In this document: positions 5,001 through 59,142 of the stretch, one piece after another
Layout of the letters: each line of letters begins with the position of its first letter
How positions within the stretch are numbered: position 1 is the stretch's first letter
Source of the DNA: Eledone cirrhosa
Lineage: Eukaryota
DNA: 64,000 bases
NCBI GenBank assembly: GCA_964016885.1
Contig: OZ024742.1
Location: 48,484,001-48,548,000, forward strand
Direction of reading: 5' to 3'
Notes under the pieces: model-generated
What the model saw: only the letters and a program-made list of their open reading frames with translations
The model's database searches: none
What the model was told of the DNA's origin: nothing
Program-made: the position numbers and the translations under genes

Positions 5001-5230
5001 GTTGGGTGAGAGTCTGTCACATGACGTTCTAGTCTCCATTTCACCGTTATTCGGACTGTTTAGGTTCGATATTTAAACACTCTTATCGAGGATTGGTGAA
5101 TGTATGGTTTCATAGCCATCTGTGGATTCACCGTTTCCGGTGGTTGCGCCGTTCCATTTGGCACTTGTGTGGAATTATCACCACGCTGTAGACGAACACA
5201 AATAAACAAACAAACACGCAGGCATAAAAA
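2005..5230 (-). mobile_element. R4/Dong-clade non-LTR retrotransposon (RT + CCHC + restriction-like endonuclease), frameshifted and 3'-truncated
   Basis: Minus-strand ORFs 4782-5039, 4110-4778, 2871-3902 and 1889-2893 carry SPGPDG, NYRPITCL, EQKGC, WIDYRKAFDMVPH, IFQGDSLSPLLF, HLLFMDDLKL, YKYLG, CRIC...ETVANIVSEC and HNRPDLVVVDK. The 5' boundary is approximate. Confidence 0.85.
2871..3902 (-). pseudogene. Reverse transcriptase domain of the R4/Dong-like element
   Basis: 343-aa ORF with the core non-LTR RT motifs (FMDD catalytic motif); frameshifted at both ends. Confidence 0.9.
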
Positions 5231-5775
5231 ACCCCCAAAATGAATAAGCATAAGTTTCATTGTAATGTAGTGTTCGAATGTCTGACTTAGTTTTTCCCCT
5301 CTCTTCTCTGCCCGTCCGCTTGTTTCTCTCTTCATTCTTATTTTCTTTACGATTTTTTTTTGTTTTTTGTTTTTGTTTTTCTCTGTTTGTTTTTCTCGTT
5401 TTTTGCTGTTGTTGCTGTGCTGTTTTGGTTTTGATGTTTGTTTTTTCTTTTTTTCTTTTGAGTCTATCTATATATTTTGATGCCTTCCTCTTTTTTAGTA
5501 GGAATTCTATAATGTGGTGGCAGCAACTAGCAGAAGCAATGGGAGACAGCAGCGGCGGTAGCGATACTGAGACAGTAGTGGTGGTGATGTCGATACCGAG
5601 GCAGTGGTGGTGGTGATGTGATCGTATTACTGTAGTGATGGTGTTGTAGCGGTGGTAGCAATGAAGGAGTGTTGGCGGCGGTGATTGTGGGATAGCGGTA
5701 GTAATGATGGCCGTTATCTGGCTGTTGTGTTTAGTGTACGCAGAGAGGTGATGTGTACGCAGAGAGGTGATGGGG

Positions 5776-5776
<1 letters not shown>

Positions 5777-5829
<53 letters not shown>

Positions 5830-5838
5830 ATTATTATT
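5777..5838. repeat. (TTA)n microsatellite on the 5' side of Tx1 copy B
   Basis: Read directly from the sequence. Confidence 0.95.
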
Positions 5839-8800
5839 GGCGACCTACGTAGTAAATCGTATCATCGTGAGCTCCGCAAAAGTTTGTTATTTTCAGTTGT
5901 TTAAAATTGCCATTCATGGAATATTTTTATTGTTAACTGTATATAAGTGCATATACATTGTTATCTGAAAAGGACACCCAAAAAGATTGGGGCCTTGAGC
6001 CCAAAATTTAAACTTTTATAATTATCAGACAAAAATTTTTCTTTGGAAAATCATGGTTGACTCAGAGTCACTCCTTTCTCACAAATTAACACATCACACC
6101 GACACCACCATTGTAAATATTACTACGTTTGCCAATACTAAAAATATAAGCAGTAGCAATATTTTAAATTTGTCTCATCAGACATTCATTTCTCGCTATT
6201 ACCAATGACTGCAGGTGTTAAAGCCGCCACCACCACCACCACCGATCCCACCACCACCCCTACCACCCCCGCGACAACAGAAACAAAAGAAAAAAATAAA
6301 TTAACTCGTGATATCGAAATGAATTCAACCAAAATGAACTCTTCCACACCGAACACCACTGACGCCACCACCACCACAACTGAAACTAAAATTAATAATA
6401 ACAAAAATAACGATAACAACAACAGCAACAATGACATTAAGAAAACCACACTGAGTTTTGCCAGAGTAGCAAAACAGTGTGAAACATTTCAGGTAACACA
6501 CGAGGAATTAGAAGAAGCCAAAAAAATGGTAAAGAAAGAGGGGTACAGGATCAGCCTCACCCCCTCACCTAATAAAATAGAGCATCGGCGGCTATGCACC
6601 GTTTATTATCAAACAATTAATATAAAATCGCGCCGAGTGGAACGGGCATCCGAGTCCCAAATCCAAAAAGCTTTGGGACATGTGTTGCCAAAAAAACCCA
6701 CATCAGAAGTGGGCAGAAGTATGGAACCGTGGACGTGTTCTTTGAAACAACACAGGAGGCTAGAGAACACTCCATGGCCCCATTAAGAAGTGACGACTTC
6801 ACACTCGTCCCAAGCTATTGTGGCCAGAGATTCGTAAAGATCAGGGTCACCCACATTCCACCGACCATCGAAATTCCCTGGCTAACAGCTGCCGTCCTCG
6901 CCGACATCGAAGCCAACACCAAGATAATCGAAATAGCTAAAGAAAAGCAGGAGAACTGGTCCGGATCTGGGATGGAGCTCCTGATCCAAGCGGACCAAAA
7001 AAGGATTGAGGAGATCACAGAGGTAATAGACCTCACTGACGGCAGCCACATCACCGTAATCGTCGAGGGCAGAAGGCCTAGGTGTGTCGTTTGTGGTGAA
7101 GGAACCCAACTAAGGGCTTTCTGCGCTCAGGTTAAAAGGTTGAGACCACCTCTCCTACCCACCCCAGTGATTCAACCATCAACACCATCAACACCACCAG
7201 CAGCAGAGATGGCAGCAACAACAGAAGCAACTGTAACAGCAACAACCCCAGCAACAGTAGCAAAACCAACACCACCACCACCACCCAACGCGCCAGAACT
7301 AGCACCAGCGCCTACACCATCCACCACGCCACAACCAAAACTAACGCCTGTGGAGGATTTTCCACTCCCCGGCCTATCACAACTGGAGACAGATTGTGAC
7401 GACGAGGAGTGGGAAACGGTATCAGGAAAAAAGAAAAAAAGAAATCCCAAAAGAAAAAAATTATCTTCCTTCCCCCTCCAAAAACAAAATACAGAGGGAA
7501 ACAAATAAACTATCAAACAAAAAAGTTAGGACAGATATGCCACCATCCACACAAGCATCACCAACCCCATCACCCCAAACACCAACACCATCACCATCAT
7601 TAACCCCAACACCACCATCACCTTCACCACACAAGTCACCAAAAAGCGAAACAGAAACAAACCCACAACAAACACAAACAAAACAAAACAACCAAAACGA
7701 TACACACTACACAGCATTAAATTTGAACAACAACCAATTATTACAATACATCCAACACAACACCAGCATCACAGAAAAATACTACACAACAACACAAAGA
7801 TCACACCACCTCCACACATACATATCACTCGCATCACACAGAAAACGTACATGACACTAAAACAAAAATTTCCCAAAGACATCGGAGACTTCCGACAAGC
7901 ACTCTCCAGGAGGATTTATAAGGATATCCTTCCTGAGGAGGCCACAAGCAGTGAAAAGGATGGAGAAACCGTCCCTCCTCTCCGAGAAATAAGGTAAGTG
8001 GTCTTTCCCATCTTTTCCACTCCATTTCAACATGACATCACTCAGAATAGGCAGCTTAAATGCGCGTGGTTTGGGGTTGTCATGGACGCAGGGCCACCTG
8101 CTCAACGACCTCAGGTCACTAAACATAGATGTAGTGGCCATCAGCGAGACCAGGATCTCCGAAGCACGGGCCTTCGCGCCGATCTTCGGCAGCTACGATG
8201 TGTACGCATCTCCCAGCCGTCCGGGATCGGGGGGAGTAGTTGCTGTGCTTTTTCGGAGAGGTTTGGATCTCGCCATACGGAGAATCTTCCTGGACCCAGA
8301 AGATAAGTTGGTGGTGCTGGACGTGACCAGCGGAGACCGGCAAGCTTTCAGGCTAGTGGCCGTCTATGCCCCGATAGGAGGAGGGCGGCCTCATTTATTC
8401 CAGCGTCTGAAGACCTTTCTTGGAACGTCCCGCTCTTTAGTGTTAGTGGGCGACTGGAACGGGATCTTAGATGCATGCTGGGACTGTGTGGGATTAGCGA
8501 ATAGGGAGGAGGGTGCAAGAGTCTCACCAACCTGGTCAGGCGTTTTGAACTGTCTGACAGGTACCGATTGGATTTCCCGAATGTGCCAATGTGGACTTGG
8601 ACAAATCGCATAGGGTCATTCAGATCTCATCTAGATAGAGTATTTTGTAGGGAAATAGATAGGTCTAGCATAGGCTGTCCACAGTTCAAGATAGTCAGCT
8701 ACACGGACCACAAATTCGTGATCTGTATGCTTGACTTAGATAGGCTTCATAGACGAGGAACCGGCTCTGCAAGCTAAACGGTTCCTTACCAGCGCGCAAG

Positions 8801-11623
8801 TCCTAAGGAGACCGGATTAGCGAACTAGTCAAGCGGGCGTTGCCGGGGTCATCCGTCAACAACAAGTGGTGGTTTGCTCTAAATAGAGCAATTAGAATAG
8901 AGTCCATTAGGTTTAGTAACGCTTTAGCAATAGAGAACAATAGAGCAGAGGGAGAATTAGTTAGAACATTAGACGAGGCGCTTAGCAAAGGCATCGCGAC
9001 CGACGTACTTGCGGCCAAATTGGTCCTTGACCAATTCTTCAATGCAAAGCACGAAGGCTGCGTTGTCAGAGCTAGGGCGCGTGCTCTCAGACACGAGGAG
9101 ACGAAAGCCGTTCAATGGGTCCAGTGGCCGAGGTGCGTCGTGGCCACAAATCCACGATCCGGTCTTTGGTGGACCACGACGGGCGCATGCTACTCGATCC
9201 CGGGCAAATATGGGAAGCTTTTCAACGACACTTCGCCCAGCTGTTCGGGGGCAGCGGCGGGCCGAATCAAGGAATGAACTTTAGTGTCTACCTCGACGGA
9301 CTGCTGTGGCTCTCGGCCACTGAGCGGGAGTGTTGCGAAAAGTCGATAACAGCCGCTGAAGTACGGGAGGCAATGACTGGCTGCACAAGAGGTAATTCGC
9401 ATGGTTTGGATGGTTTGCCCTATGAACTTTACGTACAGATGCCAGATTGTTCGGAGGCCTCTTGGCGGACGTCTACTGCAACTGGCAACAGAACGGGAGA
9501 ATTCCCAGCTCTGTGAGCCGAGTAGCTGTGGCGCTGCTGAGAAAGGATCCGAACATGAGGGATAACATAGATAATTTCAGGCCCATAACCCTTCTAAACA
9601 CATAGTTCAAGATTTTGGCCAAGGTGCTAGCAAAGAGGTTGGCGCTTGTCGTTGGTGGTCTGGTGGGAGAGGCGCAGACATGCGCCATTCCCGACAGATC
9701 CATCCACGACAACCTCCACCTCATGCGATACATCGTAGAGAAGGTAGCTAGGGAACCTGGCACGGGTGGGTCCTTGATCAATCTAGATCAGTCGAAAGCT
9801 TTCGATAGAGTCGACCATCTCGTTAGCTAGCGGCAGTCCTGAGGGCGGCTGGCTCCGTGGTTAGAGTGAAAGGTCACCTTTCGGAACCGTTCAACATCAT
9901 GCGCTCGGTCCGCCAAGGATGTCCCCTCTCGTCCCTCTTGTACGTATTGACTCTCGAACCATTACTGCACAAACTGGAGAGGTTGAGGGGGGTACCGCGC
10001 GAACTAGGATGCGGAAGGTCCGTGTCAGCATATGCGGACAATTTCACCGTAGTGGTGTCGAACGCCAAACACATCGAGGCGATCGGCACTACACTAAGAG
10101 AATACGAAGCGGTGACAGGAGCAATGATCAACTAGGAAAAATCAGTGGGCTTGCAGCTCAGCACCTGGAGAGATAGGTCCATACCGTCCAACACTGTCGT
10201 CGGGCGCTAGTGGACGGACCGGTTAAATTGCTAGTGGTCTGGTTCAGTCCGGACCTCCAGACGGACAAACTGGGACGAGGTACGAGCAGGGTGGTTTCTC
10301 TCACCCAGAAATGGGCGGAGAGGAAGCTATCCCTGAAAGTTTGAGCGGAGGTGGCTAACGCGTATATCGCGTCCGTCATCTACTACCGCCTGACCGTCGT
10401 ACCTTGTCCTAAGCCCCGCCTGACTGCGCTGGAGCGTTTGTTATTTCGCTTTTTGTGGAAGGGATGCGCTCCGATGGTCAGGCGGTCCATCGGCTGTCAA
10501 CACCCGCTACGTGGAGGGCTGGGTATGCCGTGGCTGATGATGCGCAGACACGCGCTCAGGCTACGACATCTCCACCTCTTCCTCGACGGTGATCAGGTGT
10601 GGTCGCCGTTTGCTAGACACGTCTTTCCCCAGCTCGTCTACTTGACGGAGCTGCAGTCCTGGGTCAAGCGAAGACCGAGAGGGAGCGCTTGGAGACTGGA
10701 ATGTCTTCAGGCGCTTACAGCCCTCGACCAATCGAGCAATATGATCGGTGGAAACTCCACCTTGGCGTTCTATAGGGGATTAGTGGAGGGGAAGAGCCAC
10801 GACGTACTTGGAGAAACTCTAGGCGTCGACGAAAATCAACTAGCCAATCTCTTCGGAAGAACTTTTGGGCCGGGGCCTATGGACAACTTCCAGAAATCCC
10901 TGGCCTGGCAGTGCTACCGAGGAGCCTTGCTAGTTCGTGATAAACTCTACAGGCATGGAGGTGCCGTCAGCCGGGCATGTCCGAGATGCGCGCAGGGCGA
11001 CGAAACCGTCCTGCACGCACTCGTCCAGTGTCCGAGCATTGCTGACTTGTGGGTTTATGTCGAACACCTGCTGTCACGTGTAGGACGGATCCAGCTATCA
11101 GCTGAGTCCATCGTGAGGCTTTCCCCACCTGCTCCCTGTAGCTGGGAAGGGCAGGCAGTTTTTATCTGTCTGGTGTCCATTGCGAAAGAGATAGTATGGT
11201 GGACACGATTGAAGGGCTGCAGACGAGCACTTACCTATTCAGTGTAGCCCTGATTAACTTTTTCAAATTTCATTTGAAAACGAAAATCAGGGTAGAGAGG
11301 GAAGTGCTCTCTTCCCAGCATTTTGTTGAAAGATGGGTGAGAGAAGAAAGTATGGCCCGAGTATGTGTCTGTAAATTAAAGGTTGAAAACTAGGAGAGGG
11401 CACTTGCCCTGGTGGTCAGGGTCACTGTGGCCTTTTAATGGGCTTTCTCCACAAATGTCCCTCGGAAGTCTCCCCCCTATTGGGGAATTTTTCATTGTTA
11501 TTTTTTTATTACATCCTCTGTTTTTTTTTTACACGCGGAAATGTCCATTTCTACCGTCCTCTATTGTCCTGTACTGTCCTTAATTTCTACTTTATGTAAA
11601 CACTTGTGGTTAATAAAGAAAGC
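5839..11623 (+). mobile_element. Near full-length decayed Tx1/L1-type LINE copy B (ORF1, ORF2 APE-RT-zinc knuckle, 3' UTR)
   Basis: ORF1 pieces 6205-7508 with a degenerate knuckle (CVVCGEGTQLRAFC). ORF2 pieces 8032-11393: APE, GLDGLPYE, FRPITLLN, LDQSKAFDRVDH, SVRQGCPLS, AYADN, GGLGMP, CPRC...ETVLHALVQC. AATAAA at 11612, then an (ATT)n tail. The 5' limit is uncertain. Confidence 0.9.
8032..11393 (+). pseudogene. LINE ORF2 (APE + RT + C-terminal CCHC) with multiple frameshifts and stops
   Basis: Motif order is preserved across ORF-track fragments 8032-8613, 8568-8777, 8840-9277, 9115-9516, 9615-9830, 9857-10135, 10351-11247 and 11196-11393. Confidence 0.9.
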
Positions 11624-18378: not shown

Positions 18379-20421
18379 TTTCTTTAGTGGCCACAAGGGC
18401 TGATATCAAGAAAAACATTACAGACGGCACAGGACGGTACGATGTGGGTTTTGTGCGTGTAAATATTTTTTATTATTTATATAAGAAAAGAAAAAAAAAG
18501 GACATAAAACATATATATATAAACAATAAAAATGAAAATTGAAACAATGAAAAATTCCCCAATTAGGGGGGAAACCTCCGAGGGTTACTCGTGGCGAAAA
18601 CCACACAACATACCACGGCCACCCTGACCACAGGGGCAAGCGCCCTCTCTCAATTTTTCCATCTCTCAAACTACAGACGTATATTCAGAGTGGTCCCGTT
18701 CACTCGGACCATTCTCGCTACATTCACCCACCTTTCAACAAACTTGCTAGAAAGCAGCACTTGCCTCTCCACCCTGATTTTCCTCTTGAAGTGAAATTTG
18801 AAAAAGTTAATTAGGGATTCGCCAAAGAGGAAAGTGTTTGTCTTTAACCCTTTTAACCTTGTCCACCACACAATCTCTTTCGCCATGGCCACCAGGCAGA
18901 TGAAAACCGCCTGCCCTTCCTTCTCGAAGGAAGACGGCGAGACCATCTGCACAATGGACTCATTAGACAACCGGATCAGTCCCACACGTGACAGCAACTG
19001 TTCGACATAGATCCACAAGTCAGCAATGCTCGGGCACTGAACGAGTGCGCGCACAACGGTTTTGTCGCTCTGCGTGCATCTCGGACAGGCTCAGCTGACG
19101 GCAGCGCTCCCCGGTAGCACTGCCAGGCCATGGATTTTTGGAAGTTATCCATAGGCCCCGGGCTGAAAGTTCTCCGAAAGAGAGCAAACAGCTGATCTTC
19201 TTCGACGCCCATGATCTCTCCGAGAATGTCGTCGCTCTTCCCCTCCACCAGTCCTCTATAAGACGCCGAGGTGGATGTTCCGCCGATACTGGTGCCCAAC
19301 TGGGAGAGGGCAGTGAGATCCTGGAGACATTCCAGTTTCCAAGCGCTATCCCTCGGTCTTTTTCTGACCCAGGACTGCAGCTCCATCAAGGAGACGAGCT
19401 GTGGGAAAACGTGTCTGGCGAACGGCGACCACACCCGTTCACCATCAAGGAAGCACCAGAGATGTCGCAGCCTCAGCGCATGTTTGCGCATCATCTGCCA
19501 TGGCATTCCCAGTCCTCCACGCAACGGGTGTTGACAGCAGATGGATCGTCTGATCATGGGAACGCGTCCCTTCCACAAAAAGCGGAAGAGGAGGCCTCCA
19601 TTTTGGTGAGAGTTGGGCTGGAGCATGGGACGACGGTGAGGCGGTAGCAGATGACGGATGCGATGTACGCATTCGCCACTTCCGCCCGGCCTTTCAGGGA
19701 CAGCTTCCTCTCAGCCCATTTCTGGGTGAGGGAGGCCACCCTACTCGTCACCTCCTTCCAGTGTTTCTCCATCTGAATGTCCGGTCCGAACCAGACCCCG
19801 AGCAATTTAACCAGTCCGTCCGTTCAACGCCCCACGACGCTGTCGGACGGCATGGACTTGCCTCTCCAGGTGCCGAGCTGCAAGCCCACCGACTTTTCCT
19901 GGTTTATCTTTGCTCCTGTCACCGCTTCGTATTCCTTGAGAGCGGTCCCGAGCATCTGGACGTGTCTGGTGCTCGCACCACCACGGAGACGTCGTCAGCG
20001 TAAGCCGACTCGGATTTCCTGCATCCTAGTTCGCGTGGGACGCCCCTCATCGCACCCAGTTTGTGCAGTAACGGCTCGAGAGCCAAGACGTACAAGAGGG
20101 ACGAGAGGGGACAACCCTGGCGGACTGAGCGCATGATGCTGAACGGCTGCGACAGGTGACCGTTCACGCTCACGCTGTACATTGCTGCGATCCACCCCTG
20201 AAAACGGGCCCGAAACCGGCTGTCTCGAGGACCGCCGCCAGGTACCGATGGTCGACCCTATCGAATGCTTTGGATTGATCCAAGTTGATCAGGGCCCCGC
20301 CCTTGCCAGGTTCCTTAACCACCTTCTCTATGATGTATCGCATGAGGTGGTGGTTGTCGTGTATGGATCTGTCCGGAATGGCGCATGTCTGCGTCTCTCC
20401 CTACAGACCCTTGACGACAAG
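18377..20421 (-). mobile_element. Tx1/L1-type LINE copy C, 5'-truncated (RT to 3' end), with (TTA)n tail at 18343-18376
   Basis: SVRQGCPLSSLLYVL, AYADDV, LGVWFG, GGLGMP, ALVQCP; homologous to 9640-11623 including the 3' UTR. Confidence 0.9.
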
Positions 20422-26317: not shown

Positions 26318-26453
26318 TTCAGAAGTGCAATATAATGAACTTGAAATGCTGACACAATAAGTCAGCGTGAAATAAGCTATTCGTTTTATATAAGAGTCTC
26401 TAGATACATGCCAATGTTATAAAAATATAATATATACTAGCTGCGAGAAGAAC

Positions 26454-26566
<113 letters not shown>

Positions 26567-26698
26567 CTAGGTACACAGACACACTTACAAACACAAAGAG
26601 GGAGATGTATATACATACATATATGTGTATAGATGCCTCATTCACCGTCTCTCTCTATCACTCTCTCTCTCTTTATATATATATATATATTATATGTG

Positions 26699-26746
<48 letters not shown>

Positions 26747-26791
26747 TAAACAAATAATGAATAAACAATTCCTTATATTAAACAAAAAAAG

Positions 26792-26946
26792 TTCATTATT
26801 TAACGATCGTTTCTAGGGTATATATGTGTTATAATTGGTATGCATATTCAACAGATCTATGTACAAAATTATACAAAATTATACAAATTATCAAGATTAA
26901 ATATACATACCTAACACATATATACGCCGTCTTCAGAAATAATGAA
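26792..26946 (-). ncRNA. Mirror copy of the PLE hammerhead-like motif
   Basis: Reverse complement of 37305-37459. Confidence 0.72.
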
Positions 26947-27785
26947 GTATATTTATTGATAATAACAACAATTCAAAATATCAGTTCAAAATTGACCAAT
27001 GAAAACACAAAGGGTTAAAGCAGTTCGGTGTGTGTATATACATGTAAAATCCTTACACATATTTTACAAAAATGTATGTATAACTTGTATACGCATACTA
27101 AAAAGATGGATGCAAACACAAAATTTCAAGGTTAATATCTCTGTAATCTTAAAATGCGCTGATAAGGTGCGCATTGATACTTATGGAGTCAAGCATATAA
27201 ATATATTTTTTCATACTCACACATATCAGTATAATCACACATACATGCGCGTATATGCATAAATATACACATAACCACAAACATACAAACACACACACAC
27301 CCCCACTCACATTTATATATGTGGATATAAAATCATAAGCACATGGAAATTAAATCACTCACATAAAACACTGGCACACACATTTCAAGATCAAGATACA
27401 GAAATTAGGTGGGAGGGGGGGGAAAGAAGGGGGGGGGGAAGGGTCAGTATTCAATTGTCTGAGCAGACTGCCTAATATAAATGTATCTATAAATTAAGAA
27501 AAATAAAAAAATAAAACAATAAAATATAATAAATATAATATAATATACATACACATACAGATATATATACACACATACATATATGTACGCGCACATAGAA
27601 ATATTTACGCATACACACATACACACATACATATACAGTCATACACATACATACACTTACACGAACATACACATACACATATAAAAAGATATATATATAC
27701 ACACACACGCACGCGCAACACATACACACATACACATATATATAAAAAATAGATAATAAAGATATATATCCATATATATATATAT

Positions 27786-27840
<55 letters not shown>

Positions 27841-27931
27841 TACATACATATACATACACATAGATCTAAATATACATACACATACATACACACATACATG
27901 TACATACATGTACATACATATACGCACATCG

Positions 27932-27984
<53 letters not shown>

Positions 27985-28299
27985 TAGACATATAGATACA
28001 TACACACACAACTTACATACACACGTATATATATATATATATAGATGCACCTTCATACATAGAATTAGATATATAATCATACATACATATGCACCTACTT
28101 ATACTCATATATATAAATACATACGCTTCCATATATGTGTATATACATAAAAAACAATACAACCTCACCAAACTCAGACATACAAATAAAAATAATAATA
28201 AAAAGGCATATGTATATACATACACACACGCATTAATAGAGATATATATATATATACACACATACATACACATATATATATATATACACACACATATAT

Positions 28300-28346
<47 letters not shown>

Positions 28347-28352
28347 TAGACT

Positions 28353-28389
<37 letters not shown>

Positions 28390-28478
28390 ATATATATCCA
28401 CACACTCATACCACCATAAATACACATACAAACACCCACATATATATATATATATATATATCTATATACACACACGTA

Positions 28479-28518
<40 letters not shown>

Positions 28519-28675
28519 CACACACATAAAAAACAGACATGCACATATATATATATATATATTTTATTACTCTTATATATACACATATTATATATACATA
28601 CACAACCTCACTTATACACATATACACATAAGTTATATTATAATAATAAAGAATAATATACATATATATATATAC

Positions 28676-28712
<37 letters not shown>

Positions 28713-30008
28713 CATACATACACATACATACATACACATAAACATATACATACATAAATACACACATACGAATAAAGACATATATTCACACATAGACACC
28801 TATATATATATATATATATATCTATATATATATATACCTATATATATATATATATATATATACACATACACACACACACACACACACAGACACACATACA
28901 CACTCACATATATATATATGTGTGTATGTGTGTGTGCGCACATACACATATATACACACACACATACAAACACACACAAACACATACATATGCATACGTG
29001 CACACACACACACATATATCACATAGATACGAAGATAAACATATAAATAGAGAGACATACGTATATATACACAACACACATACACATACATACATACACG
29101 CATATACATATACATACATATATACACATATATATATTCCTATATATACAAGCATACACATACATACACATATATACACATACATACACATATACATACA
29201 ACACATTCACATACACATACATATATAATGCATATATATACATATATATACATACATATGTATGTACAATCATATATACACACACAATCTTACATTCATA
29301 TTTGCATGCTCATATATGTATTTTTATATTTAGATATAAATACCCAAACCTATATATACACCTACCTACATATATATTCATACATAGACGCTTACAAATA
29401 CAGATGATAATAGTATGGGGGAAAGGGGGGGTTTGGAGAAGGGGATCAAAGTAAATATATGTTTCAAGAAACATATAATATTTTCCGTATCTTTATTCAA
29501 TGTATGTTCTTACATATTTTCAGTGCTATGAAATACGAAATCTATGCATCTCAAAATAAATAAGTATACCATTAATCATATGTTAACTAAATCAAAGATA
29601 GTCAACATATTGATTTCTAAGGTGTAAATTAGTTAGGTTTATAATATTTGAAGCAGAATTTTGAAGTCAAACAGTAGTAGATTATTAATTACAGTATAAC
29701 TAAATTAAAGTTAATAACGTTATGGTATCAATATTAGGAAATGAATTTAGTAATAGGGAAAAGAAACCCAAATAAAAATAAAATAAAGTATTACATCGGT
29801 AGTAGCATATAAATTATATGTTAACTAAATTAAAAATTATATATTTATTTCAATAGTATACGTTAATTAGTATATGTTAATTAGGTATACTATACATAAA
29901 GCAGATATTGTATTTCATCAATAGCATAATATAATTATATGCAAATAGAAATCAAAATTAATACGCATACATATACATATACATAGACATACACATATAC
30001 ATACATAT

Positions 30009-30057
<49 letters not shown>

Positions 30058-30586
30058 TACACATATATACATACATACAGATACACATACACAACACACA
30101 CATACACATACACATATACATATACATATCTTTTTCAAAAAATTGCACAGAATATATTAACTAGGTATATATCCAAAACACATCCCATTCTATGATTACA
30201 TGACATTCTGCAATTCGTCTGTATAAGGATACTAATTTTAAGCAAATTAAAATTAAAATTTTTAGGTTGATTAAAACTAAAACCAAATAATAAATATATT
30301 TCCAAAATGTATATTAATTAGGTCTATAATACTAAAAATTATTTCTCTGTCATTGGATACATGATATTATTTTGTTATATTTTATCTGTAAAAGAATTAT
30401 AATAAAAGGTTTAAATAAATTAAAATTAATCTATAAATTAAATTACTAAGTATATATTAGTAATATTTAAAGGTTTTTCACAATTTATGATTACATAATA
30501 TTTTCTCATCTGTAATAAAATATTAATTAAATTAAATTTATAGGTTAACTAACATTTAAATTAAATTAATTTCTAGAATAATGTTA

Positions 30587-32089
30587 TTAATTAGGTTTAT
30601 AATATTTAAATGTTTTTTTTAGTTTATGATTACACGATATAATTAATTCCTGTCGTTTATTTAATAAGATATCCTTAGATTTCATTATTTCAAATAGTTC
30701 TTGGGAACATAATCTACATTCCTTTCTATTATTTTGATAAGGGGTGGCTCTTTTGAGCACACTCCAGGTCAAATCATATTTTATATTCTTATTTTTATAA
30801 CTATTGATTTTTTCTGCTAGAGATGTTGTATTAGCCAGTGCGGCATTTTTAAAACTATGCTTGTGGGTATTAAACCTTGTCTTAAAATTGTTAGAGGTAG
30901 CTCCTATATATGAGCAAATAGAATCTTTAGTTTTAACATTACATTTATAGACTATGTTGTTAACAAGACAATTCCCTTTTAATGGGCAGTTTGTTTTGTT
31001 TCTACAGTTACATCCTTTCGTTAATTCTGTATTTGAGGAGATATTATGGTTAATTTGATGTACTGGTGGTATACTTATGGTTTTCTTACATTTATATGCA
31101 TTATATGCACTTATATTTTGTTTTATGTTATTTGTTGTAGAGTATGAGAATTTAACTGTAGACCTATTTAAGATTTGATGGTATTTGTGGTTTGGCGGGA
31201 AGTTTTTCTCAAGGATATAAAAAAATTTTTTAGCAATATTATCCTTAACTTGTAAATTAAAAGGAGCATTATACCAAGTAACTCGTCTATTACGGTTTCT
31301 ATGTTGTTTATTATTTTTATTATTTTTATAGGTTGTATCATGATTTTTACTAGGAGGATTAATGTTAATGATCTCACCACAACTATTTTTAGTTATATTT
31401 GTAGATTTAGGTGTTTTATCTTTTTTATTAGGAGTTTTATTATTAATATTTATTATAGTTGTATGATGAGTAGTTTTTTGAGGGTTACTATACTTTATAT
31501 TAGAAGATTTAGTATTTTGGGGTATATTGTGGGTGGCATTTAGGTGTGTACTTTTCATTTGGTGTTTGTTGGTAATATTATGCTGTATGCTTTCAGTATT
31601 TTTAGTAGAAGGTATATACTCTAATCTATTTTTGTGGCCACTTCTATCTAGAGCTTCATTATAAAAGGTCGCATTTTTATCAAATACATCTTGGTTAGAA
31701 GAAAGGTTAGAAATTCTAAGTGATATATTATATGCAAGGTTTTTAAGGATAGATTTAGGGTGATTAGATTGTGAGTGTATGTAATGTAAGTTTTGGTTAG
31801 GTTTATGGTAAGGTTGGTATATACCCGTAGCTAAATCTAAAGTTATATCTAGGAAATTTACTACTTTACTTGTTTTTTCAAAAGTAATATTAAGATTATA
31901 ATAGTCTTTAAGGAAAGTTCTAATATGTTTTTTGTTTTTTTCGATTTCTGAAAGGCTAAGGTTGTTAGAAAGAAGAAGACAGTCATCACGATATAAACCA
32001 CCTTTGAGGTGGGGAAAAGAGGCATTTATGTTGAAAAGGAGAAAGAGGCCCACAAGATCAGTAATTTGGGCGGAATCGCTTGAACCCAT
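30587..32089 (-). CDS. Mirror copy of the Penelope-like RT/GIY-YIG ORF (frame stays open upstream across the apex to 32320)
   Basis: Translation is identical to 32163-33665 in the ORF track. Confidence 0.9.
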   Translation of the reverse strand: MGSSDSAQITDLVGLFLLFNINASFPHLKGGLYRDDCLLLSNNLSLSEIEKNKKHIRTFLKDYYNLNITFEKTSKVVNFLDITLDLATGIYQPYHKPNQNLHYIHSQSNHPKSILKNLAYNISLRISNLSSNQDVFDKNATFYNEALDRSGHKNRLEYIPSTKNTESIQHNITNKHQMKSTHLNATHNIPQNTKSSNIKYSNPQKTTHHTTIININNKTPNKKDKTPKSTNITKNSCGEIININPPSKNHDTTYKNNKNNKQHRNRNRRVTWYNAPFNLQVKDNIAKKFFYILEKNFPPNHKYHQILNRSTVKFSYSTTNNIKQNISAYNAYKCKKTISIPPVHQINHNISSNTELTKGCNCRNKTNCPLKGNCLVNNIVYKCNVKTKDSICSYIGATSNNFKTRFNTHKHSFKNAALANTTSLAEKINSYKNKNIKYDLTWSVLKRATPYQNNRKECRLCSQELFEIMKSKDILLNKRQELIISCNHKLKKTFKYYKPN

Positions 32090-32162
32090 AGTAATATCAA
32101 AAAGATTACATATACAGTAAACACATACAGGAAACACATACAGTAATCTTTTTGATATTACT

Positions 32163-33665
32163 ATGGGTTCAAGCGATTCCGCCCAAATTACTGATCTTGT
32201 GGGCCTCTTTCTCCTTTTCAACATAAATGCCTCTTTTCCCCACCTCAAAGGTGGTTTATATCGTGATGACTGTCTTCTTCTTTCTAACAACCTTAGCCTT
32301 TCAGAAATCGAAAAAAACAAAAAACATATTAGAACTTTCCTTAAAGACTATTATAATCTTAATATTACTTTTGAAAAAACAAGTAAAGTAGTAAATTTCC
32401 TAGATATAACTTTAGATTTAGCTACGGGTATATACCAACCTTACCATAAACCTAACCAAAACTTACATTACATACACTCACAATCTAATCACCCTAAATC
32501 TATCCTTAAAAACCTTGCATATAATATATCACTTAGAATTTCTAACCTTTCTTCTAACCAAGATGTATTTGATAAAAATGCGACCTTTTATAATGAAGCT
32601 CTAGATAGAAGTGGCCACAAAAATAGATTAGAGTATATACCTTCTACTAAAAATACTGAAAGCATACAGCATAATATTACCAACAAACACCAAATGAAAA
32701 GTACACACCTAAATGCCACCCACAATATACCCCAAAATACTAAATCTTCTAATATAAAGTATAGTAACCCTCAAAAAACTACTCATCATACAACTATAAT
32801 AAATATTAATAATAAAACTCCTAATAAAAAAGATAAAACACCTAAATCTACAAATATAACTAAAAATAGTTGTGGTGAGATCATTAACATTAATCCTCCT
32901 AGTAAAAATCATGATACAACCTATAAAAATAATAAAAATAATAAACAACATAGAAACCGTAATAGACGAGTTACTTGGTATAATGCTCCTTTTAATTTAC
33001 AAGTTAAGGATAATATTGCTAAAAAATTTTTTTATATCCTTGAGAAAAACTTCCCGCCAAACCACAAATACCATCAAATCTTAAATAGGTCTACAGTTAA
33101 ATTCTCATACTCTACAACAAATAACATAAAACAAAATATAAGTGCATATAATGCATATAAATGTAAGAAAACCATAAGTATACCACCAGTACATCAAATT
33201 AACCATAATATCTCCTCAAATACAGAATTAACGAAAGGATGTAACTGTAGAAACAAAACAAACTGCCCATTAAAAGGGAATTGTCTTGTTAACAACATAG
33301 TCTATAAATGTAATGTTAAAACTAAAGATTCTATTTGCTCATATATAGGAGCTACCTCTAACAATTTTAAGACAAGGTTTAATACCCACAAGCATAGTTT
33401 TAAAAATGCCGCACTGGCTAATACAACATCTCTAGCAGAAAAAATCAATAGTTATAAAAATAAGAATATAAAATATGATTTGACCTGGAGTGTGCTCAAA
33501 AGAGCCACCCCTTATCAAAATAATAGAAAGGAATGTAGATTATGTTCCCAAGAACTATTTGAAATAATGAAATCTAAGGATATCTTATTAAATAAACGAC
33601 AGGAATTAATTATATCGTGTAATCATAAACTAAAAAAAACATTTAAATATTATAAACCTAATTAA
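32163..33665 (+). CDS. Penelope-like RT (C-terminal half) + CxCx5C linker + GIY-YIG endonuclease; 5'-truncated but uninterrupted, 500 aa
   Basis: FDITMGS (motif B'), GLYRDD (motif C), VNFLDITL, thumb PYHKPN..YIHSQSNHP, TWYNAPF, CNCRNKTNCPLKGNC, IVY..YIG..FKTRFNTH, CRLCSQE, LLNKRQE..CNH. RT motif A is absent. Confidence 0.9.
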   Translation: MGSSDSAQITDLVGLFLLFNINASFPHLKGGLYRDDCLLLSNNLSLSEIEKNKKHIRTFLKDYYNLNITFEKTSKVVNFLDITLDLATGIYQPYHKPNQNLHYIHSQSNHPKSILKNLAYNISLRISNLSSNQDVFDKNATFYNEALDRSGHKNRLEYIPSTKNTESIQHNITNKHQMKSTHLNATHNIPQNTKSSNIKYSNPQKTTHHTTIININNKTPNKKDKTPKSTNITKNSCGEIININPPSKNHDTTYKNNKNNKQHRNRNRRVTWYNAPFNLQVKDNIAKKFFYILEKNFPPNHKYHQILNRSTVKFSYSTTNNIKQNISAYNAYKCKKTISIPPVHQINHNISSNTELTKGCNCRNKTNCPLKGNCLVNNIVYKCNVKTKDSICSYIGATSNNFKTRFNTHKHSFKNAALANTTSLAEKINSYKNKNIKYDLTWSVLKRATPYQNNRKECRLCSQELFEIMKSKDILLNKRQELIISCNHKLKKTFKYYKPN

Positions 33666-34194
33666 TAACATTATTCTAGAAATTAATTTAATTTAAATGT
33701 TAGTTAACCTATAAATTTAATTTAATTAATATTTTATTACAGATGAGAAAATATTATGTAATCATAAATTGTGAAAAACCTTTAAATATTACTAATATAT
33801 ACTTAGTAATTTAATTTATAGATTAATTTTAATTTATTTAAACCTTTTATTATAATTCTTTTACAGATAAAATATAACAAAATAATATCATGTATCCAAT
33901 GACAGAGAAATAATTTTTAGTATTATAGACCTAATTAATATACATTTTGGAAATATATTTATTATTTGGTTTTAGTTTTAATCAACCTAAAAATTTTAAT
34001 TTTAATTTGCTTAAAATTAGTATCCTTATACAGACGAATTGCAGAATGTCATGTAATCATAGAATGGGATGTGTTTTGGATATATACCTAGTTAATATAT
34101 TCTGTGCAATTTTTTGAAAAAGATATGTATATGTATATGTGTATGTGTATGTGTGTGTTGTGTATGTGTATCTGTATGTATGTATATATGTGTA

Positions 34195-34247
<53 letters not shown>

Positions 34248-35541
34248 ATATGTATGTATATGTGTATGTCTATGTATATGTATATGTATGCGTATTAATT
34301 TTGATTTCTATTTGCATATAATTATATTATGCTATTGATGAAATACAATATCTGCTTTATGTATAGTATACCTAATTAACATATACTAATTAACGTATAC
34401 TATTGAAATAAATATATAATTTTTAATTTAGTTAACATATAATTTATATGCTACTACCGATGTAATACTTTATTTTATTTTTATTTGGGTTTCTTTTCCC
34501 TATTACTAAATTCATTTCCTAATATTGATACCATAACGTTATTAACTTTAATTTAGTTATACTGTAATTAATAATCTACTACTGTTTGACTTCAAAATTC
34601 TGCTTCAAATATTATAAACCTAACTAATTTACACCTTAGAAATCAATATGTTGACTATCTTTGATTTAGTTAACATATGATTAATGGTATACTTATTTAT
34701 TTTGAGATGCATAGATTTCGTATTTCATAGCACTGAAAATATGTAAGAACATACATTGAATAAAGATACGGAAAATATTATATGTTTCTTGAAACATATA
34801 TTTACTTTGATCCCCTTCTCCAAACCCCCCCTTTCCCCCATACTATTATCATCTGTATTTGTAAGCGTCTATGTATGAATATATATGTAGGTAGGTGTCT
34901 ATATAGGTTTGGGTATTTATATCTAAATATAAAAATACATATATGAGCATGCAAATATGAATGTAAGATTGTGTGTGTATATATGATTGTACATACATAT
35001 GTATGTATATATATGTATATATATGCATTATATATGTATGTGTATGTGAATGTGTTGTATGTATATGTGTATGTATGTGTATATATGTGTATGTATGTGT
35101 ATGCTTGTATATATAGGAATATATATATGTGTATATATGTATGTATATGTATATGCGTGTATGTATGTATGTGTATGTGTGTTGTGTATATATACGTATG
35201 TCTCTCTATTTATATGTTTATCTTCGTATCTATGTGATATATGTGTGTGTGTGTGCACGTATGCATATGTATGTGTTTGTGTGTGTTTGTATGTGTGTGT
35301 GTATATATGTGTATGTGCGCACACACACATACACACATATATATATATGTGAGTGTGTATGTGTGTCTGTGTGTGTGTGTGTGTGTATGTGTATATATAT
35401 ATATATATATATATAGGTATATATATATATAGATATATATATATATATATATAGGTGTCTATGTGTGAATATATGTCTTTATTCGTATGTGTGTATTTAT
35501 GTATGTATATGTTTATGTGTATGTATGTATGTGTATGTATG

Positions 35542-35578
<37 letters not shown>

Positions 35579-35735
35579 GTATATATATATATGTATATTA
35601 TTCTTTATTATTATAATATAACTTATGTGTATATGTGTATAAGTGAGGTTGTGTATGTATATATAATATGTGTATATATAAGAGTAATAAAATATATATA
35701 TATATATATGTGCATGTCTGTTTTTTATGTGTGTG

Positions 35736-35775
<40 letters not shown>

Positions 35776-35903
35776 TACGTGTGTGTATATAGATATATAT
35801 ATATATATATATATGTGGGTGTTTGTATGTGTATTTATGGTGGTATGAGTGTGTGGATATATATGTTTATATATATATATATATATATATATGTATGAGT
35901 CTA

Positions 35904-35950
<47 letters not shown>

Positions 35951-36265
35951 ATATATGTGTGTGTATATATATATATATGTGTATGTATGTGTGTATATAT
36001 ATATATATATCTATTAATGCGTGTGTGTATGTATATACATATGCCTTTTTATTATTATTTTTATTTGTATGTCTGAGTTTGGTGAGGTTGTATTGTTTTT
36101 TATGTATATACACATATATGGAAGCGTATGTATTTATATATATGAGTATAAGTAGGTGCATATGTATGTATGATTATATATCTAATTCTATGTATGAAGG
36201 TACATCTATATATATATATATATACGTGTGTATGTAAGTTGTGTGTGTATGTATCTATATGTCTA

Positions 36266-36318
<53 letters not shown>

Positions 36319-36409
36319 CGATGTGCGTATATGTATGTACATGTATGTACATGTATGTGTGTATGTATGTGTATGTATATTTAGATCTATGTGTATGTAT
36401 ATGTATGTA

Positions 36410-36480
<71 letters not shown>

Positions 36481-37304
36481 GGATATATATCTTTATTATC
36501 TATTTTTTATATATATGTGTATGTGTGTATGTGTTGCGCGTGCGTGTGTGTGTATATATATATCTTTTTATATGTGTATGTGTATGTTCGTGTAAGTGTA
36601 TGTATGTGTATGACTGTATATGTATGTGTGTATGTGTGTATGCGTAAATATTTCTATGTGCGCGTACATATATGTATGTGTGTATATATATCTGTATGTG
36701 TATGTATATTATATTATATTTATTATATTTTATTGTTTTATTTTTTTATTTTTCTTAATTTATAGATACATTTATATTAGGCAGTCTGCTCAGACAATTG
36801 AATACTGACCCTTCCCCCCCCTTTCCCCCCCCCCCCTCCCACCTAATTTCTGTATCTTGATCTTGAAATGTGTGTGCCAGTGTTTTATGTGAGTGATTTA
36901 ATTTCCATGTGCTTATGATTTTATATCCACATATATAAATGTGAGTGGGGGTGTGTGTGTGTTTGTATGTTTGTGGTTATGTGTATATTTATGCATATAC
37001 GCGCATGTATGTGTGATTATACTGATATGTGTGAGTATGAAAAAATATATTTATATGCTTGACTCCATAAGTATCAATGCGCACCTTATCAGCGCATTTT
37101 AAGCTTACAGAGATATTAACCTTGAAATTTTGTGTTTGCATCCATCTTTTTAGTATGCGTATACAAGTTATACATACATTTTTGTAAAATATGTGTAAGG
37201 ATTTTACATGTATATACACACACCGAACTGCTTTAACCCTTTGTGTTTTCATTGGTCAATTTTGAACTGATATTTTGAATTGTTGTTATTATCAATAAAT
37301 ATAC

Positions 37305-37459
37305 TTCATTATTTCTGAAGACGGCGTATATATGTGTTAGGTATGTATATTTAATCTTGATAATTTGTATAATTTTGTATAATTTTGTACATAGATCTGT
37401 TGAATATGCATACCAATTATAACACATATATACCCTAGAAACGATCGTTAAATAATGAA
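37305..37459 (+). ncRNA. Type I hammerhead-like ribozyme near the PLE 3' end (variant stem II base, GUU site)
   Basis: Stem I TTCATTATTT/AAATAATGAA; CTGAAGA at 37315; stem II GTATATATGTGTTA/TAACACATATATAC; GAAAC-GATC-GTT at 37438-37449. Confidence 0.72.
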
Positions 37460-37644
37460 CTTTTTTTGTTTAATATAAGGAATTGTTTATTCATTATTTG
37501 TTTAATATTTTATCTTGACTCTGTATACCGTTTATCTTTCACCGAAAGTGGATTTTCATTACATCTCTTCTTTCCATGATATCCGGAATACATTGAGTTC
37601 TTCATACGGATTGGACACTACCGTAAACTCTTGGTAGATTTATC

Positions 37645-37733
<89 letters not shown>

Positions 37734-37767
37734 TTTTCTCGCAGCTTGTATATATTATATTTTTATA

Positions 37768-37811
<44 letters not shown>

Positions 37812-38163: not shown

Positions 38164-38486
38164 ATATAAGTATTAATAAAATAGATGTTCTTTTGATCAA
38201 TTGCATTTTATTATATATATTTCGGATGTACAACAGTACGTCCTCATCAGATAATGATACATCTATAATGATACATGTATCATTATATTTTGTCTGATGA
38301 GGACGTACTGTTGTACATCCGAAATATGGATAATAAAATGTAATTAATCAAAAGAACATCTATTTTATTAATACTTATATTTTAATATTAATAACTCCTG
38401 AAAATTAATTATCTGTTAAGTGCTTCCAATCTACTGTAAAACTCATTCTTTGACATAATCATCGAATACTGTTTAACAACTTAATA

Positions 38487-40269: not shown

Positions 40270-40865
40270 AACACTTTAATACATGAATACACTTACATCT
40301 GACTATACACATCAAACATATATATATATTTACTTATTTATATACATTTTCACATATATATATATATACATATGGTCGCTTTTAGACACATTCATTATAG
40401 CATATTCGCACCTATTCTCATCAGCATATCTTTCCATTATTAGTGTGGTAATTTAAGGTTACTAATATACATATATATGTTGAGAAGAAATTGTTTTTAT
40501 ATGTTTCTAACTAGATTGAGGTTTATATAGTTGGGGGGGTGTCCCTCTTTTATGTAATATATTCTCTATAAAAACCAAACAGGTCCTCAATAAAAGTATT
40601 CTGATGAAATGACAGTTGATAATAACATTGAAATAATGAATGTCTGCATAACTAATACTTTGTAGATAGCAGCTGTTTTCAGGTTATGTAACTGTTATTG
40701 AAACACGTGTCAATAAATTCCTTTTAACTAAACTGTATCCATTTAAATCCTTCTATTTTCTCCGGATTACTTTTGAAACTACAACTGGAACCGTCAAGCA
40801 ATCTCTGCGTGAGCTGTCCATCTACTGTGTGTAATATTCATATTACAACACTACGGAAAATACTG
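39538..40865 (+). mobile_element. Non-coding fold-back element with 194-bp inverted repeats, hammerhead and tail, within (TA)n
   Basis: 39538-39731 is inverted at 40559-40752; 827-bp microsatellite-rich spacer; ~113-bp tail, then (TA)n. Confidence 0.82.
40597..40715 (+). ncRNA. Type I hammerhead ribozyme with long stem II and palindromic stem III (GUC site)
   Basis: TATT-CTGATGA-AATGACAGTT...AACTGTTATT-GAAAC-ACGT-GTC-AATA. Confidence 0.82.
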
Positions 40866-40900
<35 letters not shown>

Positions 40901-40945
40901 GTATATATATATAGAGAGAGAATGTATATATATATGTAGAGAGAG

Positions 40946-41948
<1,003 letters not shown>

Positions 41949-57203: not shown

Positions 57204-57672
57204 ACAAATAAAATACAGAGTTACTAACTCATATTGATACCCTGCAATTAACAAGCTCAAAGTATAAATACTGAGCATTATATAATAATATATGTAGAAA
57301 TAAACACAGTAACTTGTGTGTCTAAAATTACGAGGGTAGATATACCACATTGGTTTGAAAGATTTAACCAGAAGCATACGTAAGATGTATAATAAATATA
57401 TACAGACCGTATCAATAACTATTTCATCTCTCGGGCAGATTTTTCCATTTGATCTTATCTCTCGCTGGGGAAAGCCTACGGATTATCTGTTACAAACACA
57501 ATTTTCAGGGCGAAACAAATTAAATCTCTAATCTGTCCGAGAGATAAAATAGGTATTGATACGGTCTGTATATATTTATTATCCATCTTACGTATGCTTC
57601 AGGTTAAATCTTTCAAACCAATGTGGTATTTCTACCCTCGTAATTTTAGACACACAATTTACTGTGTTTATT

Positions 57673-57678
<6 letters not shown>
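57204..57678 (-). mobile_element. Fold-back element in reverse orientation (~149-bp arms plus tail)
   Basis: 57293-57441 is inverted at 57530-57678; tail 57204-57292 abuts (TA)n and the other end abuts (CA)n. Confidence 0.75.
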
Positions 57679-57965: not shown

Positions 57966-58897
57966 ATACAAATGAATATATGATAGGGATAAACACTGAT
58001 ACAAGTATACATGTGTTTGCATTGCAAATGACCAAGTTAGCTAGATTGAAAAATACTAATTAAAATAATACGGTTTGCCTGTCTCGATTTAAAATAATAA
58101 ATCAATAAAAACAAACCTATATTGGCAATAGCCATGATACCTGGACAAATTTTGTATCACGGCTATTGCCAATATAGGTTTGTTTTTATTGATTTATTAT
58201 TTTAAATCGAGACAGGCAAACCGTATTATTTTAATTAGTATTTTTCAATCTAGCTAACTTGGTCACTTGCAATGCAAACACATGTATACTTGTATCAGTG
58301 TTTATCCCTATCATATATTCATTTGTATTACACGGCTCAGAAATATTCCTTTCTTTGAGCTATTTAATTGTAAAAGACTATTTGAGTTTATAACTCTATA
58401 TATAATATTCTAGGCTCCATGCGTTGAGCTAAATTTTAGTCCCATAAAACCGGTAGCTATTTTTAGCGACACGAGTATAGGACGTGCTAGATGCTGCGAC
58501 ACATGTGCGTTCAACAACACATTTCTCTCAGTCTTCTTAACTATTTTGAAGTGAAACTTACCAATTTCTGGATACCTGCAGAAGAGCACAGGAATAGGAA
58601 ATTTCACTTAATTGTTGCGAAACAAATTTAAAATTTAAAATATAAAATGTGTCCAGGTATCACCGCTATTGCCAATATTGATTTGTTTTTATTGGTTTAC
58701 TATTTTAAATCGAGAAGGCAAACCGTATTATTTTAATTAGTATTTTTCAATCTAGCTAACTTGGTCATTTGCAATGCAAACACATGTATACTTGTACCAG
58801 TATTTATCTCCCTATCATATATTCATTTGTATTACACGGCTCAGAAATATTATTTTCTTTGAGCTATTTAATTTTACAAGACTATTTGAGTTTATTA

Positions 58898-58900: not shown

Positions 58901-58943
<43 letters not shown>

Positions 58944-58947
<4 letters not shown>

Positions 58948-59142
58948 TTAAAATAGATGAGATTCTACAGGACTAGAACTGTTTCATTCTTTAGAAATCA
59001 TCAGGAATCTGATTCCTGATGATTTCTAAAGAATGAAACAGTTCTAGTCCTGTAGAATCTCATCTATTTTAAAACTTTTATACTCTGCTATGTATTGAGT
59101 ACCTTACTTACTGTGGTTACCTCCGATTCAACCCGGAATAAC

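Follow-up and report, generated by a model that had tools for sequence, protein, structure and literature searches.

Tandem 13-mers at the apex of an inverted Penelope-like insertion in Eledone cirrhosa may be a scar of polymerase-theta-type end joining

Our analysis suggests that the three tandem 13-mers at the centre of a palindrome in the genome of Eledone cirrhosa were probably left by polymerase-theta-type end joining of two separately primed cDNA ends, which would have laid down two aborted re-copies of the adjoining element sequence. We give this explanation a probability of about 0.55. The palindrome lies in a stretch of 64,000 nucleotides that was analysed as a whole and is called the window here. 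The palindrome consists of two 5'-truncated copies of a young Penelope-like element (PLE) that stand head to head in (TA)n. The original prediction took the triplet for telomerase-like reiterative synthesis at a turn-around point and offered polymerase-theta-type insertion as an alternative; the alternative turned out to be the better fit, given the DNA-templated inserts from both flanks that we found at other junctions of the family.

The palindrome and its element

The inverted repeat aligns positions 26738-32109 with positions 32143-37513 over 5,378 columns at 99.55% identity, with ~5.4 kb in each arm. A genome search with the right arm gave 44 scored matches, most of them at 100%, and both arms are wholly element sequence; one 30-mer of the element has 889 exact matches in the genome. 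A tandem array provided the real unit of ~6.63 kb with an intact ORF, and this unit serves as the coordinate system below (unit position is window position minus 30746 in the ORF). The features of the insertion are listed in Table 1.

Table 1. Features of the inverted insertion and its apex, in window positions.
Feature	Position	Strand	Description
Left target flank	26674..26737	.	(TA)n-rich
Left arm	26738..32109	-	5'-truncated Penelope-like copy; outer end is the short 3' start site (unit 188) and adjoins (TA)n
First 13-mer	32108..32120	+	2 nt from the end of the left arm, 11 nt from the insert
Non-element insert	32110..32130	.	21 nt; two aborted copies of the opening 16 nt of the right arm
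Second 13-mer	32121..32133	+	10 nt from the insert, then the opening GAA (3 nt) of the right arm
Right arm	32131..37650	+	5'-truncated copy; outer end is the long 3' start site (unit 325) and adjoins (TA)n
3' part of the element ORF	32131..33665	+	RT core from NLFDITMGS, linker, C-terminal GIY-YIG-type endonuclease
Third 13-mer	32134..32146	+	native element sequence; intact elements carry one copy
Tail, right arm only	37514..37650	+	137 nt
Right target flank	37649..37704	.	(TA)n

Intact copies, for instance L032 at 4604-7042, hold an ORF of 813 aa with the motifs SDKTGN (DKT in place of DKG), CNCRNKTNC (the CxCX5C linker), CRLC (CxxC) and CNH (CxH). The same motifs are described for the Hydra clade in passages of PMC8557442, together with the C-terminal endonuclease, the (TA)n target, and tandem and inverted 5'-truncated copies with a tail at one end. 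Our element differs in having RWR where the Hydra clade has RWK, a tail of 137 nt versus the 30-40 bp given for PLEs, and a unit of 6.6 kb with a long microsatellite-rich 3' region. It is a Penelope-like element with Hydra-clade motifs and, judged by these motifs and the (TA)n target, may belong to that clade. A Pfam search of the element gave nothing at threshold, and its Atlas neighbours are HTH_animal/GIY-YIG/RVT clusters at 0.96-0.99. A 4.3-kb part of the unit has 16 Rfam matches, none of them to a hammerhead family.

Every outer arm end that was located adjoins TA runs. In the window, the TA flanks of the insertion are bordered by an older and imperfect inverted pair (93%; 26417-26550 and 37635-37768), so the element inserted within a small palindromic repeat. 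Multi-unit arrays were observed at L030-L033 (C2:36292000-36331999) and C1692, and the array on C2 has one inversion junction with three tandem units on either side. Elsewhere in the window there are short self-inverted stretches (38164-38380, 57293-57678, 57966-58328 and 58937-59082) and broken non-LTR retrotransposon ORFs, endonuclease and RT-like by translation (1362-4781, 6157-11499, 18543-20257 and 40838-41791).

Composition of the apex insert

The three 13-mers are present between the arms of the inverted repeat exactly as originally reported. The arm boundaries given with them were partly right: the first 13-mer does share 2 nt with the left arm, and the GTAA at 32143-32146 is where the self-complementary match resumes, but comparison with the genome copies places the start of the element part of the right arm at 32131 and not at 32143. 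Intact element copies read CCAGAAACACATACAGTAATC at the point equivalent to the apex. In the fetched loci, where overlapping loci are counted more than once, the 13-mer is a single copy after CCAGAA in 88 of its 93 occurrences, the remaining five are junctions, and the doublet is confined to the window's own locus. Since intact copies carry a lone 13-mer, the third 13-mer is native to the right arm and the foreign part of the apex is 21 nt long. The triplet is thus real and absent from intact elements, in keeping with the original prediction, while it is made of one element 13-mer plus two re-copies instead of three new units.

Two exact pieces of the adjoining 16 nt cover 19 of the 21 inserted bases, a coverage reached by none of 100,000 shuffles and none of the 63,979 other 21-mers of the window; these counts rule out that the triplet arose by chance. 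The earlier of the two re-copies carries one substitution or AT slip. Read along the top strand, the insert holds three primings at most 4 nt from the tip of the right arm (on AC, on AA, and on CAG with one extra G), two of which were aborted, after 11 and 10 nt, with one error in the first. Along the bottom strand it reads as two slip-backs. The insert is readable in either direction and its sequence by itself fixes no direction of synthesis. The period of 13 nt is explained by two AA pairs that stand 13 nt apart in the element at the apex spot.

Two start sites and a probable single donor

The first 100 motif matches on C1 were fetched and gave 71 unselected loci, to which further selected loci were added. 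An inversion junction is present in 52 of the 71 loci; 18 others were counted as non-inverted (two or three of them ambiguous), and one fell into neither group. We found that the outer ends of the arms fall at two fixed positions, unit 188 and unit 325, which are 137 nt apart, and that either type of end can be on the long arm. One arm ends at each site in 40 of the 42 pairs with both ends found, and both exceptions are 188/188. The 42 pairs are the window and pairs from L034-L108, L155-L157, L023 and L026. The 40 mixed ones comprise 17 of the first 18 pairs (p 7e-5 versus a coin) and, among those added later, 3/3 symmetric pairs, 19/20 short-arm pairs and L092. Five near-symmetric pairs besides the window could be followed to both ends, and all five are mixed like the window pair. 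As to the scope of this count, four pairs ended in N or at a contig end, 16 inversion loci on C1 were not traced to both ends, and the long end of L049 was read past 325 through TA.

The inverted arm of L056, L078 and L092 lies wholly within the 188-325 tail. The partner lacks the tail sequence, so the short arm of these loci cannot be the partner's copy, and this together with the mixed termini argues that the arms were primed independently. We conclude that the apex probably joins two separately primed cDNA ends and that a turn-around is disfavoured. Both observations go against the original proposal of a stuttering 3' end that annealed and primed the return strand: the window pair, like the other mixed pairs, starts from two different fixed 3' sites, and the three short arms hold sequence that could not have been copied from the partner. 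Separate priming from 188 and 325 fits the description in PMC11167929 of a PLE protein that cleaves and extends both target strands, starting at two sites that bound the tail. The internal initiation of Poseidon_Ac in that paper is similar in its priming of both strands, its two RT starts bounding the tail and its AT-rich target, whereas that paper found the start sites alike on both strands and, in its available part, leaves the inversion junction aside; nearly every pair here has one end of each kind.

Between the two arms of a pair there are 0-1.6 differences per kb in each of the 19 pairs tested, whether symmetric or asymmetric, versus a median of 5-26 per kb to other copies. The arms of the window have two differences in 3,326 aligned non-microsatellite positions, or 0.6 differences per kb, and share four alleles that are absent from every other copy examined. 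The low divergence between arms and the shared private alleles suggest that a single donor fed both arms, probably one RNA; later gene conversion would be an alternative. The shared private alleles were also considered as editing barcodes and this idea was dropped (A>G accounts for 18 and T>C for 14 of 71, with no one-strand signal in these pairs).

The near-identity of the window arms and their private alleles would also be found if a cDNA had stuttered, snapped back and primed a return strand that became the left arm. The geometry of the window permits such a fold-back, as the tailed arm reaches further 5', and three further near-symmetric apices occur at the same spot, versus ~0.03 expected, over a weak local hairpin. 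Snap-back of cDNA is documented for R2 (PMC11371274), and self-priming has been proposed for PLE palindromes (PMC3846280). However, arm identity holds in 19/19 pairs whatever their symmetry; it therefore does not single out fold-back and was rejected as proof of it. Under fold-back the tailed arm must include the whole of the other arm, and at least 16 other pairs break this nesting (L034, L035, L046, L051, L081, L104 and L156, and the short tailed arms of L043, L056, L078, L082, L094, L096, L099, L107 and L092). Fold-back would also require that the return strand was cut or came to a stop exactly at the short start site; a variable end or a run into the flank would be expected, and the left arm ends at the recurrent site 188 beside (TA)n. 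The local hairpin is not significant (z -1.36) and was discarded as the cause of the apex. The R2 case shares with ours the inverted element sequence at the 5' junction, but according to the available text of PMC11371274 the snap-back copies the cDNA itself, while the arms here can hold sequence absent from the partner and end at fixed starts. As the geometry still permits it, a fold-back keeps some small chance in the window, and we consider it very improbable.

An assembly or read artefact, in which a long read folded back into a chimera and was noisy where it turned, has hardly any probability left. The apex is known from the assembly: no public contig (Logan, four runs) spans 32104-32127, and three of the four runs have identical pieces of the unique flank, with both matching and differing haplotypes in the flank check. 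Logan contigs drop rare paths beside repeats at a depth in the thousands, which makes the missing contig uninformative. A chimera would mirror the flank, but the arms end at different biological termini beside different flanks, and the insert has the same kind of structure as inserts found at other junctions.

Reiteration at the junctions of the family

A strict scripted census counted inserts of >=5 nt in 21 of 51 cases, a number inflated by subfamily SNPs and microsatellite, and it was replaced by a reference-free test, namely an exact complex direct repeat of at least 10 nt at the joint, compared with random joins. Such a repeat was found at 5 of the 52 inversion junctions versus 0.85% of random joins (binomial p 8e-5), and at 2 of the 18 non-inverted 5' junctions versus 0.78% (p 0.009). 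By hand, in a count that is subjective, a local templated insert was called at 11/52 inversion junctions (L038, L039, L052, L061, L067, L070, L077, L082, L090, L092 and L095); the complexity filter of the reference-free test misses L061 and L077. L061 is another triple, of a 16-mer. The repeat periods range from 7 to 44 nt and come from many element positions. The claim of reiterative synthesis stands to this extent: the re-copies are templated and error-bearing, absent from intact elements, and enriched at junctions of the family by the reference-free test.

The expected enrichment of tandem repeats at other palindromic apices did not appear. Among the seven other near-symmetric apices only L039 has a tandem (a 7-mer twice); the apices of L022, L024, L155 and L156 were joined on 1-6 nt of homology, and those of L054 and L157 have 1-2 extra nt. 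With six of seven lacking a tandem repeat, the idea that reiteration is peculiar to palindrome apices was given up. It is a property of junctions generally.

The order of the pieces in L052, L067, L082 and L095 is antisense arm, sense copy, antisense copy and sense arm. If each cDNA had slipped back on RNA, the order would be the reverse, so at least one aborted step was templated by the other cDNA at these loci. The repeated unit in L091 and L017 spans target and element, which again needs an aborted DNA-templated step. These six loci weaken the second part of the original claim, a telomerase-like RT as the source; the insert of the window may itself be RNA-templated. Single-flank repeats also occur, at L038, L039, L070, L077, L090 and L065.

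We noted that six near-symmetric apices lie within ~60 nt of the element (the window, at 32131-32165 equivalent, L022, L039, L155, L156 and L157). The base equivalent to 32131 is an end at three near-symmetric junctions, those of the window, L022 and L156, and a fixed RNA 5' end or a pause is possible at the clustered apices. A targeted pattern search gave three new symmetric apices at the spot of the window, which was picked because the window lies there (~0.03 expected), and a second spot yielded no new one. Truncation at a general hot spot was rejected, as the 64 unselected sense-arm ends gave no significant cluster (scan p 0.78, 0.20 and 0.08). Symmetry was seen in 2 of 9 unselected pairs (p ~0.06).

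Several junctions have a composition of their own. L027 (C4:180992200-181001300) has a 170-nt sense piece from ~500 nt downstream at its inversion junction, and L092 (C1:269819210-269825050) has a 27-nt distal piece inserted. Beside its main arm, L067 (C1:158170420-158176260) has an inversion in the style of L1 twin priming (unit 1599 to 1364 inverted, sense from 1595). At L163/L164 (C7:36058300-36072000) a jump interrupts the left arm of the L156 palindrome ~300 nt from its apex, and this arm is the longer one by ~570 nt; a second element end adjoins the right TA flank. Both flanks of L092 and L152 are long TA runs repeatedly interrupted by the same CAA (~25 units left, 9 right), and the flanks of L026 are similar; they could be an older compound microsatellite or stem from repeated copying of the target end.

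Long near-perfect inverted repeats are unstable, and central asymmetry occurs in long palindromes. One may hence suppose that a cleaner palindrome came first and that its centre was rearranged later, either through a hairpin that was opened and end-joined or through slippage of the 13-mer in replication, which the AA at both ends of the unit would permit. We regard this as very unlikely: similar inserts are found at strongly asymmetric and at non-inverted junctions, the insertion is young (as the small difference between its arms indicates), and the 13-mer is unexpanded in every other occurrence examined.

Candidate sources of the re-copies

Telomerase repeat addition makes tandem copies of a short segment from a dedicated template by means of a short alignment overlap. 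The apex resembles it in its several tandem short copies, its short alignment overlap and the related RT, and the junctions of the family differ from it in the lack of a dedicated template and of a constant unit, in at most 2-3 extra rounds, and in having errors and both-flank inserts. The element's own RT could have left the end of its template and re-primed a few bases back before the cDNAs joined, and we hold this to be possible but doubtful. Seen on the bottom strand, the three rounds stop at almost the same boundary (32131, 32132 and 32134), and each new one begins 13 nt further back by aligning on AA, the pattern of a repeat-addition cycle. PLE RTs are sister to telomerase RT (PMC8557442), the shared end at the 32131-equivalent base could be a fixed RNA 5' end, and the additional symmetric apices point to the same spot, though the unselected data have no significant hot spot there. 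The insert in the window is also single-flank, like the repeats at L038, L039, L070, L077, L090 and L065. Against this, the variable period and position of the repeats imply that no fixed template was used, RNA slip-back alone cannot give both-flank or junction-spanning inserts, and most junctions have no repeat at all. No report of reiterative telomerase-like synthesis by a Penelope-like RT at junctions was found in a literature search judged by titles.

The RT could have acted in two ways. Template jumping on the partner cDNA seems unlikely to us, and telomerase-like slip-back on the RNA decidedly unlikely. The latter grade also applies to the idea that the PLE RT keeps a vestige of telomerase-type repeat addition, by which it would slip back at the RNA 5' end and re-copy; the stutters at about one fifth of the inversion junctions would then be its genomic record, finding homology to join cDNAs of one RNA, and this too we would put forward with great reserve.

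Polymerase-theta-type end joining accounts better for what we see at the junctions. The 21 nt of the insert come from the adjoining 16 nt of one flank, with primings on 2-3 nt of homology. Inserts made by POLQ are mostly <25 bp, ~85% of them are primed <=10 bp from the break, their synthesis is error-prone, and overlapping reiterated copies of one flank are found in 16 of 17 complex cases, according to the available part of PMC5068794. We favour host end joining at the probability given above. The features in common are an insert copied a few bases from the joint, priming on 1-3 nt, errors and reiteration of one flank; the difference is that the ends here would be retroelement cDNA ends and not a chromosomal break. 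Sequence cannot name the polymerase, and when the one-flank insert of the window is read along the other strand, slip-back on RNA accounts for it equally well. With the PLE RT present at both cDNA ends, the DNA-templated steps could also be its work. On the minus strand of C23 (21159745-21188141), a pair of helicase-type HTH exons (HTH_61) and then family-A polymerase exons (DNA_pol_A) lie within 30 kb in the arrangement of POLQ and mark a putative POLQ gene.

L1 twin priming gives another parallel. Two target-primed cDNAs meet there at an inversion junction, which is read as an end-joining product and is resolved like a 5' truncation, by c-NHEJ or MMEJ, in the part of PMC11702581 that deals with it. 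In L1 the internal site at which the second primer anneals varies, and the part copied from it does not overlap the other (PMC11702581), whereas the second site here is fixed and the arms overlap for kilobases; the L1-type layout is seen only in L067.

The following course of events could have produced the apex by end joining. The element protein would cut the (TA)n site on both strands, and each target end would prime reverse transcription from one of the two fixed start sites, probably on one RNA. Both cDNAs would halt near the same point. The 3' end of the left cDNA would then form a 2-nt pairing close to where the right cDNA ends, be extended by 11 nt with an error, and release; it would re-pair by AA, be extended by 10 nt and release again; finally it would re-pair via CAG, with one extra G, and be extended for good. 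We observed the composition of the insert, both termini, the match between the arms and similar inserts at other junctions; the direction of synthesis and the polymerase we infer.

Implications

The apex would be an ordinary repair scar, whose signature is known and whose joint is of a new kind, and it gives no proof of telomerase-like synthesis. What is new here is the junction census. Our literature search, with subscription journals and supplements outside it, found no prior description of reiterated inserts at PLE junctions. The junctions bear on how inverted PLE insertions are closed, for which PMC3846280 proposed self-priming; the available text of PMC11167929 leaves the later steps of PLE insertion unvalidated. 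If the RT were the source after all, the inserts would show directly that the sister group of telomerase is capable of repeat addition. The family offers hundreds of young junctions in which the two start sites, the one donor and the end-joining scars can be counted.
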